Below are positions 23,482 to 31,051 of a stretch of 45,378 nt of DNA, piece by piece (within the stretch, counting starts at the first letter, position 1; each line of letters begins with the position of its first letter). The DNA comes from Thermoanaerobaculia bacterium (GTDB taxonomy: Bacteria; Acidobacteriota; Thermoanaerobaculia; Gp7-AA8), in assembly GCA_036388835.1 (NCBI GenBank), contig DASVRB010000365.1, positions 1-45,378 of the forward strand, written 5' to 3'. A program made the position numbers and the translations under genes. The notes below the pieces were generated by a model that worked only from the letters and a program-made list of their open reading frames with translations, ran no database searches and was not told where the DNA came from.

Positions 23482-23557
23482 GGGCGGGAACTTAGCACAC
23501 CCACAGCAGCATCGCTGGCGTGAGGGGAGCGGCGGGGGAGCGGCTCGCATCTTCCGG

Positions 23558-23648
23558 TGTCATTCCGCGCTTCAGCGCGGAATCCCCTTCCGGAGAGCAA
23601 CGGTACGTCGCTTCGGCAGGGGATCCCGCGCTGAAGCGCGGAATGACA
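23558..23648. repeat. Inverted pair of REP-like palindromic units
   Basis: TGTCATTCCGCGCTTCAGCGCGGAATCCCC (23558-23587) and GGGGATCCCGCGCTGAAGCGCGGAATGACA (23619-23648). Each unit is itself a hairpin (ATTCCGCGC-TTCA-GCGCGGAAT). Confidence 0.65.
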
Positions 23649-23730
23649 CAGAATGCTGTTCTTAGCACCACAGTAGCGATCGCGGAGTACGCGCATGCGA
23701 GCAAAGTGCGCGGCAAGGCATAATTGAGAG

Positions 23731-24303
23731 ATGTCCGCACGCATACGCGAGCACGCGACGTATCAGGACCTGCTGAAGGTGCCGGACAACATGGTCGCGG
23801 AGTTGATCGAAGGGGAATTGTTCGCGTCACCGCGGCCGCGCATCCGTCACGCGGAGGCGCAAACGGAGCTGGCGGCGATCCTGCGCTCGACGTTCGGACG
23901 AGGCGGTGGCGGATCGGGCACGTGGCACATCCTCATCGAGCCGGAGCTTCACCTCGGCGCTGACATCCTCGTTCCCGATATCGCCGCCTGGCGCGTCGAA
24001 CGCGTCGGGCCGCGGATGCCCGACGTTGCGGCGATGACCCTCGCGCCCGACTGGGTCTGCGAAATCCTCTCGTCCTCCACAGCGCGCCTCGATCGGGCGA
24101 GGAAGCTCCCGGTGTATGCGAGACACGGCATCCCGTACTCGTGGATCGTTGCGGTCGATGAGCAGGTGCTGGAGGTCAAGCGCCTCGAGAACGGCAAGTG
24201 GACTGACATCGGAACCTTTGCGGCGGGTGACGTCGTGCGAGCGGAGCCGTTCGACTCGATCGAGATCGACATGACGCGCGTCTGGGGCCCACCCCCCTCT
24301 TAA
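23731..24303 (+). CDS. Uma2-family (DUF820) putative endonuclease
   Basis: [20 protein letters not shown]...PDIAAW...[35 protein letters not shown] matches the Uma2/PD-(D/E)xK pattern. Confidence 0.85.
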
Positions 24304-24860
24304 CGCGCGCGCTTCTCCAGCTCCGCGCCCACCTCCTCCCAACCGATCCCTTCATTCACCATCAACACCGACAGGTGAAAGACCAGATCGGCGATCTCGC
24401 TGATCGTTCGGTCGCGGCCCTCTCCTGATGCGGCGATGACGACCTCGGTCGCTTCTTCGCCGATTTTCTTCAGGATTTTGTTGCGGCCGGCGTTGAAGAG
24501 CGTTGCGGTGTACGAGCCTTCCGGCCGCGACTCGTAGCGCTCGCCGAGCACGCGCATCAATCGTTCGAGCGGCAGCGGTGGGACGTCGGCGAAGCAGGAG
24601 TCGGCGCCGGTGTGACAGGCAGGGCCCGCCGGCACGACCGTTACGACGAGGGCGTCGTTGTCGCAGTCGGTGGCGATGTGCACGACGCGCTGTGTGTTGC
24701 CGGAGGTCGCGCCTTTGTGCCACAGCTCGTTGCGGCTGCGGCTCCAGAACCAGGTCTCGCCGCTCTCGCGCGTCTTCGCGAGCGACTCTTCGTTCATGTA
24801 GGCGAGGGTGAGGATGGCGCCGCTGCGTGCGTCGCGGACGATTGCGGGGATGAGGTTCAT
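24300..24860 (-). CDS. hisI: Bifunctional phosphoribosyl-AMP cyclohydrolase / phosphoribosyl-ATP pyrophosphatase
   Basis: HisI part: [38 protein letters not shown]...CDNDALVV...CHTG. HisE part: SYTATLF...[17 protein letters not shown]. Confidence 0.93.
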
Positions 24861-26317
24861 CGGATGGGGATCCCTTCTGCGGCGAGGTATTGCTTCACGT
24901 CGCCAACGGTGAGCACGCGGTCGTGAAAGAGGGAAGCGGCGAGCACGGCCCGCGCGCCGCCGGATTCGATGGCGTCGCGAAAGTGGGTGAGGTTGCCGGC
25001 GCCGCCGGAGGCGATGACGCCGATCTGCAGACGCGAGCTGACGGCGCGCAACAATTCGATGTCAAAGCCGGAGCTGGTGCCGTCGCGATCGACGGAGGTG
25101 AGGAGGATTTCTCCGGCGCCGAGCTGCTCCGCTCGCACGCACCACTCCACCGCATCGACATCCGTCAGTTCTTTCCCGCCGCGCACAGCGGCGAACCCGC
25201 CCCTCGCATCACACGACAGGACCACCGCCTGCACTCCAAACTCCTCGGCGCATTCGCGGATGAGCTCCGGCCGGCGCAGCGCGGCGGTGTTGATGGCGAC
25301 GCGATCGGCACCGGCGCGCAGCAGCGCGCGGAAGTCGTCGATCGTGCGGACGCCCCCTCCGACGGTGAGTGGAATGAAGAGCGCGTCGGCCACGCGGCGA
25401 ACGGTGTCGAGCGCGGTCTCAGTAGCGCGATCGGTCGCGGAGATGTCGAGCAGCACGAGCTCGTCGGCACCTTCGGTTTCGTAGCGCATCGCGCATTCCA
25501 CCGGATCGCCTGCATCGCGGATCTGCTCGAACGAGACCCCCTTGACCACGCGGCCGTCGCGGACGTCGAGGCAGGGGATGACCCGCTCCGGAATCGCATT
25601 CGGCGTCGCCACGCGCGCCTGCGCTTGCGCGAGATCGAGCCGTTTTTCGAGCAATGCCTTGCCGATCACGCAGCCGCTCACATTGCCGAGGCGCGAGAGC
25701 GAGACCGCGTCGCTGATGGTGGAGACGCCGCCGGATGCGATCAGACGGACGCGGGTGAGCGCCCGCAGCTCGCGATAGAGCGTGAACGATGGACCGCGCA
25801 ACGCGCCGTCTCTCGAAATGTCGGTGACGAGCGCTTCGTCGATGCCGAGCGATTCGAGGCGCGCGAAGATCTCGGCAAGCGAGGACGACGAGGCGCGCTC
25901 CCAGCCGTCGGTGCGCACCACGCCGTCGCGCACGTCGATGGCCGGGATGATGCGCGTCGCGCCGAACGCGTTCACCAGCGATTCGAGCAGCGCCGGCGAT
26001 TCGGCGGCCACGGTGCCGACGACGAGCCGTTGCGCGCCGCAGTCGAGCCAGCGTTGCGCATCTTCGAGCGAGCGGATGCCGCCGCCGACCTGCACGATCA
26101 GCTCGCGTGAAGCGAGACGCCGCACGACGTCCGATTCAATCGGCCGGCCGCGGCGCGAGCCTTCGAGATCGACGACGTGCAGGCGCGAGCCACGCGGTAC
26201 GTCGAGCGCATCGAGCACCTGTTCGGGCTCGCCGTACACGCGCGCGGTCGCAAAGTCGCCGTGCGTCAGTCGCACGACCTTACCGTCGAGCAGATCGAGG
26301 GAGGGGATCAGTTGCAT
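24857..26317 (-). CDS. hisA/hisF: Fused HisA (ProFAR isomerase) - HisF (imidazole glycerol phosphate synthase cyclase subunit), single 486-aa ORF
   Basis: aa 1-233 are HisA-like ([17 protein letters not shown]...IPAIDVRDG...ASGGVS...GCVIGKAL). There is a 10-aa linker. aa 244-486 are HisF-like ([16 protein letters not shown]...LTVGGGVRT...ASGGAG...ASLFH...[10 protein letters not shown]). No stop codon at the junction (25589-25618). Confidence 0.9.
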
Positions 26318-26898
26318 TGCACGAAGTTCCTGAGGACGCGCAGTCCGGCGGCCGACGATTTTTCGGGATGGAACTGCACGCCGAACACGCGTTCGCGCTG
26401 CACGGCGGCGGTGAAGCGGCCGTTGTATTCGGCCGCCGCGATCTCGTTGTCCGCGTCACGTGCGGCGTACGAGTTCACGAAGTAGAAGGAGGTGCCGTCG
26501 GCAATTCCGTCGAAGAGGATTGCCTCTTTTCCACGCACGCGGTTCCAGCCGATTTGCGGGACCGGCAGCGGCCCGTCGATGCGTCGAATGCTGCCGCGAA
26601 TCAGGCCGAGCCCGCGCGTCTCGCCGTGCTCGTACGAAACGTCGAAGAGAAGTTGATGACCGACACAGATACCGAGGAGAAACGCGTTGCGCTCGACGGC
26701 AGTGGTGATGGCGGAGTCGATGCCGCTCTGCGCGAGCCACGCACGCGCGGCCGCAAACGAGCCGACGCCCGGCAGCACGAGCTTCCCCGCGCGCGCGACG
26801 ACGTCCGGATCGCGCGACAGCTCGATCGTGGCGCCGGCGGCACGCAGCGCGCGCGCGATGTTGGCGGTGTTGGCGACGGGAGAATCGATGAGGATCAA
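26308..26898 (-). CDS. hisH: Imidazole glycerol phosphate synthase glutaminase subunit
   Basis: ILIDSPVANTANI..., GICVGHQLL (catalytic Cys), VQFHPEKS. TTG start at 26898 with AGGAG 4 nt upstream; TTGA overlap with the hisB stop. Confidence 0.92.
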   Translation of the reverse strand: MILIDSPVANTANIARALRAAGATIELSRDPDVVARAGKLVLPGVGSFAAARAWLAQSGIDSAITTAVERNAFLLGICVGHQLLFDVSYEHGETRGLGLIRGSIRRIDGPLPVPQIGWNRVRGKEAILFDGIADGTSFYFVNSYAARDADNEIAAAEYNGRFTAAVQRERVFGVQFHPEKSSAAGLRVLRNFVQCN

Positions 26899-27482
26899 AT
26901 CACTCCTTTCGTGCTCGGCACCTCGTTGCTCACGACTTCTTTCGCGGCGCGGACGGCGATCGCGAAGGCTTTGAAGATCGCTTCGGCGGCGTGGTGTCCG
27001 TTGCGGCCGCGCAGGAGGTCGACGTGCACGTTCGCGGCGCATTTGTTCGCGAATGACTTGAAGAACTCTTCGACCAGCGCGAACGGAAAATCCTTGTGGA
27101 TGAGCAGCATCTCGCGATCGAGCGGCGCTTCGAAGACGAGGAACGGGCGGCCGGAGAAGTCGACCACCACGCGCGCCATCGCTTCGTCGAGCGGGACGTA
27201 GGCGTGGCCGAAGCGGCGGATGCCGCGTTTGTCGCCGAGTGCCTGCGCGAACGCCTCGCCGAGGACCAGGCCGACGTCTTCGACCGTGTGGTGATAGTCA
27301 ATGTGTGTATCACCTGTCGCGGCGACGTCGAGGTCGACCTGCGCGTGCCGCGCGATCGCGTCGAGCATGTGCGAGAGGAAGCCGATCGGCGTGTCGATGT
27401 TCGCGCGGCCGCTGCCGTCGAGATTCACCGTGATGTTGACCGACGTTTCTTTGGTGACGCGTTTGATGGTGGCGGTTCTCAT
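26895..27482 (-). CDS. hisB: Imidazoleglycerol-phosphate dehydratase
   Basis: MRTATIKRVTKETSVNITVNLDGSG...IDYHHTVEDVG...GRNGHHAAEAIFKAF; 195 aa. ATGA overlap with the hisC stop. Confidence 0.94.
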   Translation of the reverse strand: MRTATIKRVTKETSVNITVNLDGSGRANIDTPIGFLSHMLDAIARHAQVDLDVAATGDTHIDYHHTVEDVGLVLGEAFAQALGDKRGIRRFGHAYVPLDEAMARVVVDFSGRPFLVFEAPLDREMLLIHKDFPFALVEEFFKSFANKCAANVHVDLLRGRNGHHAAEAIFKAFAIAVRAAKEVVSNEVPSTKGVI

Positions 27483-28495
27483 GCGAGCTCCTGCAGTGCG
27501 GCGAAAAAGCGGTCGTTCTGTTCGGGCGTGCCGATCGAGACGCGCAGCGTCGCGTCGAGCGGCGTCTTGCGGATCAGAATGCCGCGCTCGAAAAAGTCGT
27601 CGAACGTGGCGCGTGTGCGGAAGGCGATGAAGTTCGCGCAACTCGGATAGACGGCGATCGAGCGAATGCCGCGCATCGCGGCGAGCAGCCGTTCGCGCTC
27701 CGCGACGATCCGCGCGACATTCGCATCGCGCATGTCCCGGTTCTCCAGCGCCACCGCCGCGATGTGCTCGCTGATGACGTTCAGCGAATACGGCAGCTTC
27801 ACCTTCCGAATCTCGCGACACGTCGCGGCGGTGGAGGCGAGCCAGCCGGTGCGCAGCGCGGCCAGTCCCCACGCTTTCGAGAAGGTGGAGAACGTCACCA
27901 GCCGGTCGTCGAGCGGCGGCAGCTCATCGTCCGCAAAGTCGCCGTACGCGCGGTCGAACAGCACCGTTGCGCCGCTGTCGAGCAACCGTTGCAGGCCACC
28001 GTGCGCGAGCACGCTGCCGGTCGGATTGTTCGGCGAGCAGACGATCGCGACCGCGCCATCGAGTGTCGCGAGCGCCCTGAGCATTTCGTCGAGCGGCAGC
28101 AATCCCGACGTGGGATCGAAATCGATCGGCACCGGCAGGCCCCCAGCGATCGTGACGAGCTTCTCGTACAGCGCGAACGTCGGACGCGGAAAGACGACCG
28201 GCGTGCCGGGGCCGACGAACGCGGCAATTGCCGCAGCGAGCAGCTCGTTCGAGCCGTTGCCGACCAGGATGTTCTCCGCCGCGAAGCCGTACGCATCGGC
28301 GAGCGCGGTGCGCAGCGCGGTCGATTCGAAATCGGGATAGAGGTTCCATGGCCGCTCCGCCATGCGTGCGAGCGCCTGCTCCTTCAACTCGCGCGGAAAG
28401 TCGTACGGCGATTCGTTTTGATTGAGCTTGATCTCCGCTTCGCGAAGCTCGAGCGTGTAGGCGGTCATTGCGGCAACGGTGGCGCGCGCGCTCAT
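27479..28495 (-). CDS. hisC: Histidinol-phosphate aminotransferase
   Basis: IKLNQNESPYDFP...GNGSNELL...CSPNNPTG...FSTFSKAWGLAALRTGW. ATG 28495 overlaps the hisD stop (ATGA). The 646-aa track ORF is an upstream extension through hisD. Confidence 0.92.
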   Translation of the reverse strand: MSARATVAAMTAYTLELREAEIKLNQNESPYDFPRELKEQALARMAERPWNLYPDFESTALRTALADAYGFAAENILVGNGSNELLAAAIAAFVGPGTPVVFPRPTFALYEKLVTIAGGLPVPIDFDPTSGLLPLDEMLRALATLDGAVAIVCSPNNPTGSVLAHGGLQRLLDSGATVLFDRAYGDFADDELPPLDDRLVTFSTFSKAWGLAALRTGWLASTAATCREIRKVKLPYSLNVISEHIAAVALENRDMRDANVARIVAERERLLAAMRGIRSIAVYPSCANFIAFRTRATFDDFFERGILIRKTPLDATLRVSIGTPEQNDRFFAALQELA

Positions 28496-29724
28496 CGCGT
28501 GCCTCCGTTCAGCGCGGACGCGGGGACAGGCAGGATTGCCTCTCCTCCACTTCTTGCTTCGATCGACTCGGCGTGTTTCGGCAGACCTTCGAACCGGGCG
28601 ATGCGCGCGGCGGCATCGGCGATGTCGCCGAGCTTCTCCTCGCTCAACATCACCACGTTCGAGCGCTTCACGAAGTCGTACACGCCGAGCGGCGAGAAAA
28701 AGCGCGCGCTGCCGGCGGTCGGCAGCACGTGATTCGAGCCGATCGCGTAATCGCCTGCCGCCGGGGCGGAGAACGAGCCGACATAAATCGCGCCGGCGTT
28801 CTGCGCACGATCGGCGATCGACGCCGCGTTTCGCGCGTGAATCGAAAGGTGTTCCGGCGCGATGCGATCCGAGAGCGCGATCGCTTCTTCGACGGAATAG
28901 GCGACGAGATTCAGCGTCGCGCGGACGTCGAGCGGCGCGCCGACGGAGATGCAGATCACGGCGGAATCGGGACCGTGCTCCTGTTGCGCGTCGAGGTCCG
29001 CCTGCACCAGTGCCGCGTTCGCGCTGTCGTCGGCGATCACGATCAATTCGGTCGGGCCGGCGGTCATGTCGATGCCGACTTCGCCGATGAGCCGCGTCTT
29101 CGCGGCGGTCACGTACGCGTTGCCGGGACCGGCGATTTTGTCGACGCGGCGCAGCGACTCGGTGCCTAACGCGAGCGCGGCGATGCCGGCCGCGCCGCCG
29201 CAGCGATAGAGCTCCGTGATGCCGAGGCGGTTGCAGACGTAGTGCAGCTCCTCGCGCGAGGCGGCGGCGGGAGTGGTCGCCACAACCAGCTCCGGCACGC
29301 CCGCGATGCGCGCGGGAACCGCGCACATGATCAGCGTCGAGATGTAGACCGCGCGTCCGCCCGGCACGTACAAACCGGCGCGCTGCAGCGGGCGCACGCG
29401 GTGCGTGACCCCCTCCCATTCGTACGACCGCGGCAGTTGTTGGAGGTGAAACGCCTCGACGCGCGCGATCGCCAGATCGAGTGCATTCGCGAGCTCGCGA
29501 TCGATGCTCACCCGGCGCGGCTCGATCCGAATGGCGTCGGGTGCGAGCTGCACGTTGTCGAAGCGGGCGATCTGCTCGGCGACGTACGCGTCACCGCGTG
29601 CGCGCACGCCGGCGATCATCTCGTCGGCGACGCGGAACGCGTTTTCATTCGAGGCGTTGCGGCGCTGTTCCAGCGCGCGCAGCGCGGCTTCTGCTTCAGG
29701 CGATGAGGGTCGGAACCATTGCAT
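28492..29724 (-). CDS. hisD: Histidinol dehydrogenase
   Basis: LYVPGGRAVYISTLIM...KIAGPGNAYVTAAK...AGPTELIVIAD...QQEHGPDS...APEHL...GDYAIGSNHVLPT; 410 aa. Confidence 0.94.
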   Translation of the reverse strand: MQWFRPSSPEAEAALRALEQRRNASNENAFRVADEMIAGVRARGDAYVAEQIARFDNVQLAPDAIRIEPRRVSIDRELANALDLAIARVEAFHLQQLPRSYEWEGVTHRVRPLQRAGLYVPGGRAVYISTLIMCAVPARIAGVPELVVATTPAAASREELHYVCNRLGITELYRCGGAAGIAALALGTESLRRVDKIAGPGNAYVTAAKTRLIGEVGIDMTAGPTELIVIADDSANAALVQADLDAQQEHGPDSAVICISVGAPLDVRATLNLVAYSVEEAIALSDRIAPEHLSIHARNAASIADRAQNAGAIYVGSFSAPAAGDYAIGSNHVLPTAGSARFFSPLGVYDFVKRSNVVMLSEEKLGDIADAAARIARFEGLPKHAESIEARSGGEAILPVPASALNGGTR

Positions 29725-30337
29725 TGCGGGCTTCCTCGATGCGCGCGATCAGCTCGCGCGCGGTTTTGTTGTTCGTTCTGAGGGCATTCGTCGCGACGAT
29801 GAGCCGCGGCGTGATGTCAGTGACGAGCTCCTGCAGCTCGAGCTTGTGGACGCGCGCCGTCTCGCCGCTTTCGACGAGGTCGATGACGTGGGAGGTGAGA
29901 TGGAGCACCGCCGCGAGCTCGACCGAGCCGCCGAGGGGGACGATCTCCGCGCGCAGGGACAACGAGTCGAGATACTGCCGCGCGATGCGCGGGTACTTGG
30001 TCGCGACCGTCGCGCGATGCGACAGGGGAGGCGCGCCCGTGGCGCCGATGACCATCATCCGGCAGCGTCCGAACGGCAGCTCGACCGCCTGCGCGGCGCT
30101 GCATTCCTGCTCGAGAATTTGATCGAGTCCGGCCACGCCGGCGTCGGCCGCGCCGTGCTCGACGTACACCGGCACGTCGCAGTCTTTGACGAAGATCCAT
30201 TCGATCGCACCGCGCGTGAAGACGAGCTTGCGCGTGGCGAGATCGGCGCTGTCGGGCACGTCGTAGCCGGCCGCCGCGAAGAGCGCGAGTGAGGGAGGGA
30301 GGAGACGTCCTTTCGGAATCGCGATTCTCATCATCAA
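29696..30337 (-). CDS. hisG: ATP phosphoribosyltransferase, short (HisZ-dependent) form
   Basis: MRIAIPKGRL...DCDVPVYVEHGAADAGVAG.D...VATKYPRIARQY...LGGSVELA; 213 aa, without the C-terminal regulatory domain. Confidence 0.92.
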   Translation of the reverse strand: MMMRIAIPKGRLLPPSLALFAAAGYDVPDSADLATRKLVFTRGAIEWIFVKDCDVPVYVEHGAADAGVAGLDQILEQECSAAQAVELPFGRCRMMVIGATGAPPLSHRATVATKYPRIARQYLDSLSLRAEIVPLGGSVELAAVLHLTSHVIDLVESGETARVHKLELQELVTDITPRLIVATNALRTNNKTARELIARIEEARNAMVPTLIA

Positions 30338-31047
30338 TCCTCGAGCGCGTCGACGGTCAGGGTGAAGCCGACCGCGGGGGCCGCGTAGCCGAAGCGCGCG
30401 TAGAGCGCGTCGTAGCGGCCACCCTGCGCCAGCAGCGTGCGGCGATCGGCGGCGTAGAGCCAGAAGCGCAGGCCGGTGTAGTAGCCGGCGTCCGTGTCGT
30501 CGCTGTCGTGCCGCACGAAGCGCGCATCGCTTGCTAGCGCGCGCTGCAACTCGTCGTCGCGCTCGACGGAGCCGATGACGCTGTAGACGACGAGCGCGTT
30601 CTCGACGAGCGAGGCGGCGATCTGCAGCAGCTCGACGTCCGCTTCAGCCGAGGCGTCGCCGATCAGCTCTGCACCGATCTGGAACAGCTCGCGATTGCTG
30701 CCGAGACGTGAGGCTTCGCAACGAATGACATCGCCGCGATAGAACACGCGCAGCGGCAGGTTGCGCTCATCGAGCGACGGTGCGAGCGCGCGCGCCACCA
30801 TCGGCGTGAAGTCGGAGCGGACGGCCACGAGCTCGCCGTCGCGGTCGGTGAAGCGGTAACTCTGCCGCGCATCGTTCGCGGTGACGCCGGCATACGGTTC
30901 CGCGAAGTCGATGATCGGGAGCACGACCTCGGCGAAGCCCGCGTCTTCGAGCGACGAGACGATCCGCGTCTCGATGCGTCGTCGCCGCGCCGTCTCTTCG
31001 ACGAGCAGCGGGCGCGCTCCGGTTGGATATCTGAATGTTGTGGCCAT
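30334..31047 (-). CDS. hisZ: ATP phosphoribosyltransferase regulatory subunit HisZ (compact, 237 aa)
   Basis: Class-II aaRS-like motifs (PTGARPLL..., YRFTDRDGELVAVRSDFTPMVAR, RVFYRGDVIR, ELFQIGAELIG, GGRYDAL...AVGFTL). ATG at 31047; 4-nt overlap with the hisG start. Confidence 0.8.
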   Translation of the reverse strand: MATTFRYPTGARPLLVEETARRRRIETRIVSSLEDAGFAEVVLPIIDFAEPYAGVTANDARQSYRFTDRDGELVAVRSDFTPMVARALAPSLDERNLPLRVFYRGDVIRCEASRLGSNRELFQIGAELIGDASAEADVELLQIAASLVENALVVYSVIGSVERDDELQRALASDARFVRHDSDDTDAGYYTGLRFWLYAADRRTLLAQGGRYDALYARFGYAAPAVGFTLTVDALED

Positions 31048-31051
31048 CAAG

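Follow-up and report, generated by a model that had tools for sequence, protein, structure and literature searches.

Can HisA and HisF, two paralogous barrels that catalyze successive steps of histidine biosynthesis, occur as one natural protein, and is such a join real, functional and of any consequence? The question is raised by a stretch of 45,378 nucleotides from Thermoanaerobaculia bacterium (Acidobacteriota; GenBank assembly GCA_036388835.1, contig DASVRB010000365.1, positions 1 to 45,378), hereafter the window, in which an earlier inspection of the letters alone (the sequence-only reading) had noticed a single open reading frame (ORF), here called hisAF, carrying a HisA-like half followed by a HisF-like half. 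HisA and HisF are the classic illustration of how enzymes evolve when a barrel is duplicated, and the histidine pathway is the classic model for the part that gene fusion plays as pathways evolve. Comparison with known families and with related loci leads us to conclude that hisAF very probably encodes a genuine bifunctional HisA-HisF enzyme that is still partnered by a separate HisH. [quoted passage not shown]

24857-26317, minus strand: hisAF, an ORF of 486 residues that joins HisA to HisF, starting with ATG at 26317 and ending with a stop at 24857-24859
25610-26317, minus strand: HisA (ProFAR isomerase) barrel, residues 1-236, with D8, D128 and TDIxxDG at 165-171
25589-25621, minus strand: inter-barrel linker, residues 233-243, from the end of the HisA C-terminal helix to where HisF strand beta1 starts; the joint of 10 residues, 233-242, is 25592-25621
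24860-25588, minus strand: HisF (IGP synthase cyclase subunit) barrel, residues 244-486, with D251/D370, gate residues R245/E286/R339/E403, and the HisH anchors D338 and C-terminal R486

The uninterrupted frame of 486 residues that had been reported at 24857-26317 is confirmed from ATG to stop, with the amendment that it lies on the minus strand; translation of the same positions on the plus strand is interrupted by a stop. Pfam places two His_biosynth domains in the protein. When scored with NCBIfam models, the HisA half (residues 3-231) reaches 341.3 bits with TIGR00007, for which the equivalog cut-off is 228.95, and the HisF half (residues 243-486) reaches 396.9 bits with TIGR00735 (equivalog cut-off 294.55), in keeping with the earlier claim that a full HisA-like half precedes a full HisF-like one. 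Matches of this strength are far beyond chance. The four sequence contexts of aspartate residues picked out in that reading are all present, IPSLDLLDG at residues 4-12, IPAIDVRDG at 124-132, IPCLDVRDG at 247-255 and LSCDARGG at 367-374, and the two halves share about 30% identity with one another, so that the paralogy of the barrels is visible within a single chain. The joint had been described correctly as about 10 residues free of stop codons and frameshifts, although its coordinates (25589-25618) were 3 nt off. No second copy of hisA or hisF is found elsewhere in the window.

Residues required for both activities are intact. Among 121 family members D8 and D128 of the HisA half are invariant (121/121), as they are in alignment A1, from which invariance was read as well; we take the catalytic pair of Thermotoga maritima HisA, on strands beta1 and beta5, to be D8/D127. 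R245, D251 and D370 of the HisF half are likewise invariant in the 121 members. Alignment to 1vh7 and 2a0n gives the equivalences to T. maritima HisF as R5=R245, D11=D251, E46=E286, D98=D338, K99=R339, D130=D370, E167=E403 and R249=R486, and all eight of these positions are invariant in alignment A1, showing that the ammonia gate and the HisH-anchoring residues have been retained. The sole change in the gate is the conservative replacement of K99 by R339, encoded at window positions 25301-25303.

The gene lies in a complete and compact operon on the minus strand, in the order hisZ, hisG (short form), hisD, hisC, hisB, hisH, hisAF, hisIE, in which its immediate neighbors are the following.

26308-26898, minus strand: hisH (glutaminase subunit), a separate gene; TIGR01855 192 bits, cut-off 105
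24300-24860, minus strand: hisIE (bifunctional, phosphoribosyl-AMP cyclohydrolase and phosphoribosyl-ATP pyrophosphohydrolase, PRA-CH/PRA-PH); NF002747 245 bits, cut-off 187

The end of hisH and the ATG of hisAF overlap by 10 nt, and the stop of hisAF overlaps the ATG of hisIE (ATGA). The separate HisH that had been placed just upstream is therefore present as an intact gene, which probably starts with TTG at 26898 and has an AAGGAG motif ahead of that codon. Its catalytic motifs GICVGHQ and FHPEKS are intact in the window and in all related loci.

How well the fused frame is conserved was assessed by a protein search of a collection of 5.8 billion proteins, from which the best 120 matches were taken, and by a genome scan using one genome per species. 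All 120 matches are fusions of 477-510 residues that align with the whole query (100%) at 75-86% identity and derive from numerous independent assemblies in JGI, ENA, NCBI and Logan; those with named sources are Thermoanaerobaculia (Acidobacteriota). The genome scan gave 26 Thermoanaerobaculia/Acidobacteriota loci with a single open frame through both barrels, and the fused gene is again found, within the same operon, in a relative (GCA_041748075.1) whose identity is only 56%. Gene order is identical across all related fused loci, in each of which HisH is intact and well conserved and overlaps the start of hisAF in the same manner. The HisA-HisF join is conserved, then, within a soil-bacterial lineage of the Thermoanaerobaculia. 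The sequence-only reading had proposed a search for fused orthologs, which are abundant, and had named two findings that would speak against a fusion, relatives with uniformly separate genes and a stop or frameshift at the junction; neither is encountered in the best matches or the related loci. In one locus (L012; CAVTGG010000017.1, from the metagenome-assembled genome (MAG) MFD09212) hisH, hisD and hisZ are each in two pieces and hisAF is intact, the split genes probably being indel errors of a long-read assembly and not biology.

Outside the Acidobacteriota the scan gave four loci, from Solirubrobacteraceae, Christensenellaceae, Symbiobacteriaceae and Erysipelotrichaceae, at which hisA and hisF are adjacent yet separate. 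These four loci (L025, L033, L038 and L045) had been considered as additional fusions on the strength of matches of about 1.5 kb, and were rejected on finding the genes separate. At L025:2410-3921 (Solirubrobacteraceae MAG JANRFB010000012.1) hisA and hisF share the same frame with a lone stop codon between them, an arrangement that illustrates the ease of fusion, for a single substitution would join the two genes.

Fusions of this kind extend beyond the present genome and lineage. When 1.84 billion cluster representatives were searched exhaustively, they yielded 21 further clusters, defined at 50% identity, with collinear HisA-to-HisF matches at 36-56% identity, a sample of which was verified by NCBIfam. 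Larger fusions verified in the same way are HisH-HisA-HisF (P0127, 707 residues), HisH-HisA-HisF-HisIE (P0133, 933 residues) and HisA-HisF-HisI-HisE (P0144). The gene for the 933-residue protein, which stands for four genes and five catalytic domains, is located at L057:5001-7802 (GCA_964599475.1, CAZRFU010000051.1) in a cluster of 70% GC that reads hisZ-G-D-C-B-[HAFIE] followed by trpEGDCFB, and this fusion (P0133/P0283/P0284) is present in NCBI, JGI and Logan assemblies. The same domain set is seen in P0291, a protein of 903 residues related to those of the candidate phyla radiation (CPR). A 500-residue HisAF encoded in DNA of 32% GC, in a differently organized operon that has long-form hisG, has hisIE upstream and has no hisZ, was found twice, once in an NCBI MAG and once in a JGI metagenome. 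Searching with P0127 returned, among the best 120, 81 clusters of triple fusions (P0127, P0285-P0364) and 38 of double fusions (P0365-P0403), with Candidatus Peregrinibacteria, Candidatus Kerfeldbacteria, Patescibacteria and the 2012 'ACD' uncultured bacteria as named hosts; HisA-HisF and HisH-HisA-HisF fusions are common in CPR/Patescibacteria.

These proteins resemble the window protein in A-to-F order, short linker and location in a his operon but are only 37-45% identical to it, and many add HisH and/or HisIE. Bootstrapping of nearest neighbors for the HisF half groups only P0121 with the window family (83% of replicates), whereas most other fusions have unfused HisF nearest neighbors in at least 90% of replicates, and the fusion is polyphyletic for this reason. 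Unfused nearest neighbors, together with host GC contents from 32% to 70%, indicate that the fusions in CPR and other MAGs were independent events, and a single origin for all of them is excluded by those neighbors and by the differing operon layouts and GC contents. Domains always follow operon order, H-A-F-IE, which, like the layout at L025, fits an origin by loss of a stop codon. Individual proteins depart from the general picture. One representative in the exhaustive search seems to be reversed, a candidate with a HisF-like barrel followed by a HisA-like barrel. In P0128/P0273 (MBW3565518.1, Acidobacteriota MAG) the HisF half scores 178.6 bits against the cut-off of 294.55 and the D11 equivalent is Glu (VPVMEIRDG), and this degenerate-looking half may be a pseudo-enzyme or a repurposed barrel. 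P0144 (773 residues) has an insert of about 75 residues between HisI and HisE, and its HisF half, at 269 bits, is slightly under the cut-off.

Prediction of structure, also proposed in the sequence-only reading as a way of seeing whether the barrels pack, supports the two-barrel fold. The AlphaFold2 (AF2) model of the window HisAF, built from a 48-sequence alignment, has eight strands in each half, a mean predicted local distance difference test score (pLDDT) of 91.6, a predicted template modeling score (pTM) of 0.87, and pLDDT values of 82-88 in the linker. Foldseek comparison of this model with the PDB gives HisF chains with target-normalized TM-scores (TMt) of 0.88-0.93 and query-normalized scores (TMq) of 0.48 or less. 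A sequence search of the PDB returns, apart from the 555-residue yeast HisHF, only chains of HisF or HisA with about 250 residues, and neither search of the PDB gave a chain with both barrels. HisH docks on the N-terminal face of HisF, as is familiar from PDB entries 1gpw and 1jvn. The AF2 model of the CPR HisH-HisA-HisF triple fusion (76 diverse sequences; pLDDT 92.3, pTM 0.78) superimposes on both domains of yeast HisHF, the whole of the target, with TMt of 0.73-0.76, compared to only 0.42 for the HisAF model. Its alignment takes up about 785 columns, so that the HisA barrel is carried as an insertion. The models predict that a HisA tethered to the N-terminus of HisF would be compatible with canonical HisH docking, with HisA positioned alongside.

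Is the conserved frame nevertheless misleading? Adjacent genes can be merged by single-base errors, and at L025 one substitution at the lone stop would imitate a fusion, so the possibility that hisAF is in reality two genes joined by a lost stop or an indel in sequencing or assembly deserves consideration. The same frame is present, however, in every one of the best matches across assemblies from four sources, in 26 species-level genome loci and in the relative at 56% identity, and all length variants of the linker (a class with a 4-residue deletion and one 20-residue insertion) are in frame, their lengths being multiples of three. Given these comparative data, an artefact is effectively refuted and can be given almost no credence. 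A second concern is that a continuous frame might still yield two proteins, by initiation within the linker or by proteolytic cleavage, and so behave like unfused genes. No part of the protein is less conserved than the linker (0.72, against 0.85 and 0.88 for the barrels), which is exposed and which in the window has a GTG at codon 236 inside it. No motif resembling a Shine-Dalgarno (SD) sequence precedes that codon, however, and a scan of 24 family coding sequences for internal starts and SD motifs shows that 9/24 have no ATG, GTG or TTG in the linker, that the position of the start varies in the others, and that an SD-like motif lies ahead of a candidate start in only two. Internal initiation was rejected as a conserved feature on these grounds, and the conserved product is accordingly taken to be the fused chain. 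A stop codon would moreover be expected to return if two products were needed, while the frame has stayed open in spite of indels, and the AF2 model predicts no disorder in the linker. We consider two separate products quite unlikely.

It is harder still to argue that one barrel is no longer a histidine enzyme, having become a pseudo-enzyme or a paralog of the WbuZ/HisF2 or PriA type. The HisF half does pass the WbuZ cut-off (343.5 bits against 299.7), and the distant P0128 shows that an acidobacterial fusion can carry a degenerate HisF half. Yet in the window family the HisA and HisF equivalog models give the two halves their best scores, each in excess of the cut-off, the catalytic, gate and HisH-anchor residues are all invariant, and the only hisA and hisF sequence in the window is within this complete his operon. 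A WbuZ/HisF2 identity was rejected because the WbuZ score is below the 396.9 bits for HisF, the AglZ/HisF2 score of 289.8 is under its cut-off of 310, and the context is not a polysaccharide-modification cluster; an identity as PriA (bifunctional HisA/TrpF, TIGR01919) was rejected at 199.1 bits against a cut-off of 306.45. Loss of function in either half is thus highly improbable. Several points do weigh against a bifunctional enzyme partnered by HisH. The position of gate residue K99, which is Lys in the solved HisF proteins aligned, is an invariant Arg here. The window model was built from a shallow set of sequences (75-86% identity), and pTM may overstate the confidence in barrel-barrel packing and is consequently read with caution. 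The HisH-docking model was made on the CPR protein rather than on that of the window, and HisH:HisF complexes were part of AF2 training, which makes this model a demonstration of plausibility and not proof.

[quoted passage not shown] The gene would serve as the only hisA/hisF gene of a complete, translationally coupled his operon. Most likely hisA and an adjacent hisF became joined when an ancestral member of this Thermoanaerobaculia lineage lost the stop codon of hisA between them, and the fusion would since have been kept by purifying selection. We infer that the product stays one chain and would assemble with HisH into a complex with three active sites, the fusion enforcing 1:1 stoichiometry and the proximity of consecutive steps. 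True channeling of PRFAR by HisAF is possible. A stronger version, in which the link fixes HisA beside HisH:HisF to give a three-active-site machine in which HisF receives labile PRFAR directly from HisA and the HisH glutaminase is switched on by this transfer, is a speculation we regard as rather doubtful. If it were true, HisA-HisF, HisH-A-F and HisH-A-F-IE would provide Rosetta-stone proof of the long-proposed hisBHAF metabolon, and these proteins would offer a natural two-barrel scaffold for studies of (beta-alpha)8 barrel evolution. Slightly better placed, although we still think it the less probable outcome, is the view that the fusion is real and bifunctional but a selectively neutral, frozen accident of stop-codon loss, with neither channeling nor a defined barrel-barrel interface. 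The same gene pair has been fused repeatedly in unrelated lineages, always in operon order as simple stop-codon loss predicts, the linker differs among lineages in length and sequence, and it has been argued in print that metabolite diffusion is seldom rate-limiting (quoted in PMC10138114). That the fusion has outlasted deep divergence (identities as low as 56%) and indels in the linker speaks for selection, the pTM of 0.87 suggests fixed packing, and repeated independent fixation, streamlined CPR genomes included, hints at an advantage, but none of these observations is decisive.

How does this protein relate to known fusions in the pathway? Reviews of histidine gene fusions from 2007, 2020, 2021 and 2023 record fusions of hisD, N, B, H, F, I and E, with hisA not among them, in agreement with the remark in the sequence-only reading that hisA-hisF is not a standard fusion; these reviews treat hisA/hisF solely as paralogs arising from gene elongation. 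The count of fused his genes in the specialist reviews up to 2023 is seven, with hisA left out. In a 2024 survey of archaeal fusions HisHF is listed together with one HisA/F-type barrel joined to HisIE, but not HisA-HisF. Neither the reviews and the archaeal survey nor the open-access literature searched yielded an account of a naturally occurring HisA-HisF fusion, although subscription journals could hold one. Separate HisA and HisF proteins of bacteria and archaea, such as those of T. maritima (PDB 1thf, 1gpw, 1vh7), show that each half of the window protein is a canonical barrel; its HisF half matches solved HisF structures at 44-59% sequence identity (wild-type T. maritima at about 48%) and at TMt of about 0.9, and the catalytic Asp pairs, the phosphate-binding motifs, the ammonia gate and the HisH anchors are shared. 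The differences are that the barrels form one polypeptide with a joint of about 10 residues and that gate residue K99 is Arg. HisHF, exemplified by yeast HIS7 (PDB 1jvn, 1ox4-6), also tethers a partner to the N-terminus of the HisF barrel and places consecutive or cooperating activities in one chain, but HIS7 joins HisH to HisF whereas HisAF joins HisA to HisF and leaves HisH separate. The CPR HisH-HisA-HisF protein combines the two layouts, and its model keeps a HIS7-like HisH:HisF geometry. In hisIE, hisNB and HIS4 (hisIED), as in hisAF, adjacent or functionally linked his genes have merged, and the window itself contains hisIE. HisAF nonetheless belongs to none of the described fusions (hisIE, hisNB, hisHF/HIS7, HIS4), as the fused pair of activities differs.

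Engineered 'HisAF' chimeras reportedly made in the Hoecker and Sterner laboratories for studies of barrel evolution are said to be single barrels with one half-barrel from each protein; the literature search turned up one paper on such barrel chimeras. They too combine HisA and HisF sequence in one chain, but the window HisAF is natural, has 486 residues and consists of two eight-stranded barrels, which rules out an assignment to the half-barrel type.

HisA-HisF is therefore an undescribed variant among known his-gene fusions that is already in public databases, unrecognized. Domain-architecture databases probably list a HisA-HisF architecture. NCBI and JGI name the fused proteins only 'HisF', 'cyclase' or 'HisA', and with such one-function names pathway-completeness tools could score hisA or hisF as missing and uncultured hosts could be wrongly called histidine auxotrophs. 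The catalog of his fusions is extended by the addition of hisA, with HisA-HisF conserved throughout a class of Acidobacteriota, the widespread CPR forms and the four-gene HisH-A-F-IE. These proteins supply evidence of the Rosetta-stone type bearing on the hisBHAF metabolon, which was described as proposed and experimentally unconfirmed in a 2023 review, and natural material for tests of PRFAR channeling. It should be borne in mind that neighboring genes of an operon commonly fuse and that the chemistry stays within known bounds.

The remaining genes of the operon, assigned by NCBIfam, are listed here.

26895 to about 27500, minus strand: hisB
about 27479-28555, minus strand: hisC
28492-29724, minus strand: hisD
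29696-30337, minus strand: hisG, short form
30334-31050, minus strand: hisZ

HisZ of the window is unusually short, having 238 residues compared to 316 in L055, with about 75 residues of the middle region missing, and its score of 164.7 bits is under the hisZ equivalog cut-off of 271.65; short HisZ matches are seen in related loci too. An Rfam scan of the whole window matched no family, and this includes a 48-nt inverted repeat at 23548-23658 (ATTCCGCGCTTCAGCGCGGAAT). The arms of this repeat are 85% complementary, are separated by a spacer of 15 nt and each contain a palindrome of their own, and the element is intergenic, with an amidohydrolase gene on one side and a Uma2-family endonuclease gene on the other.

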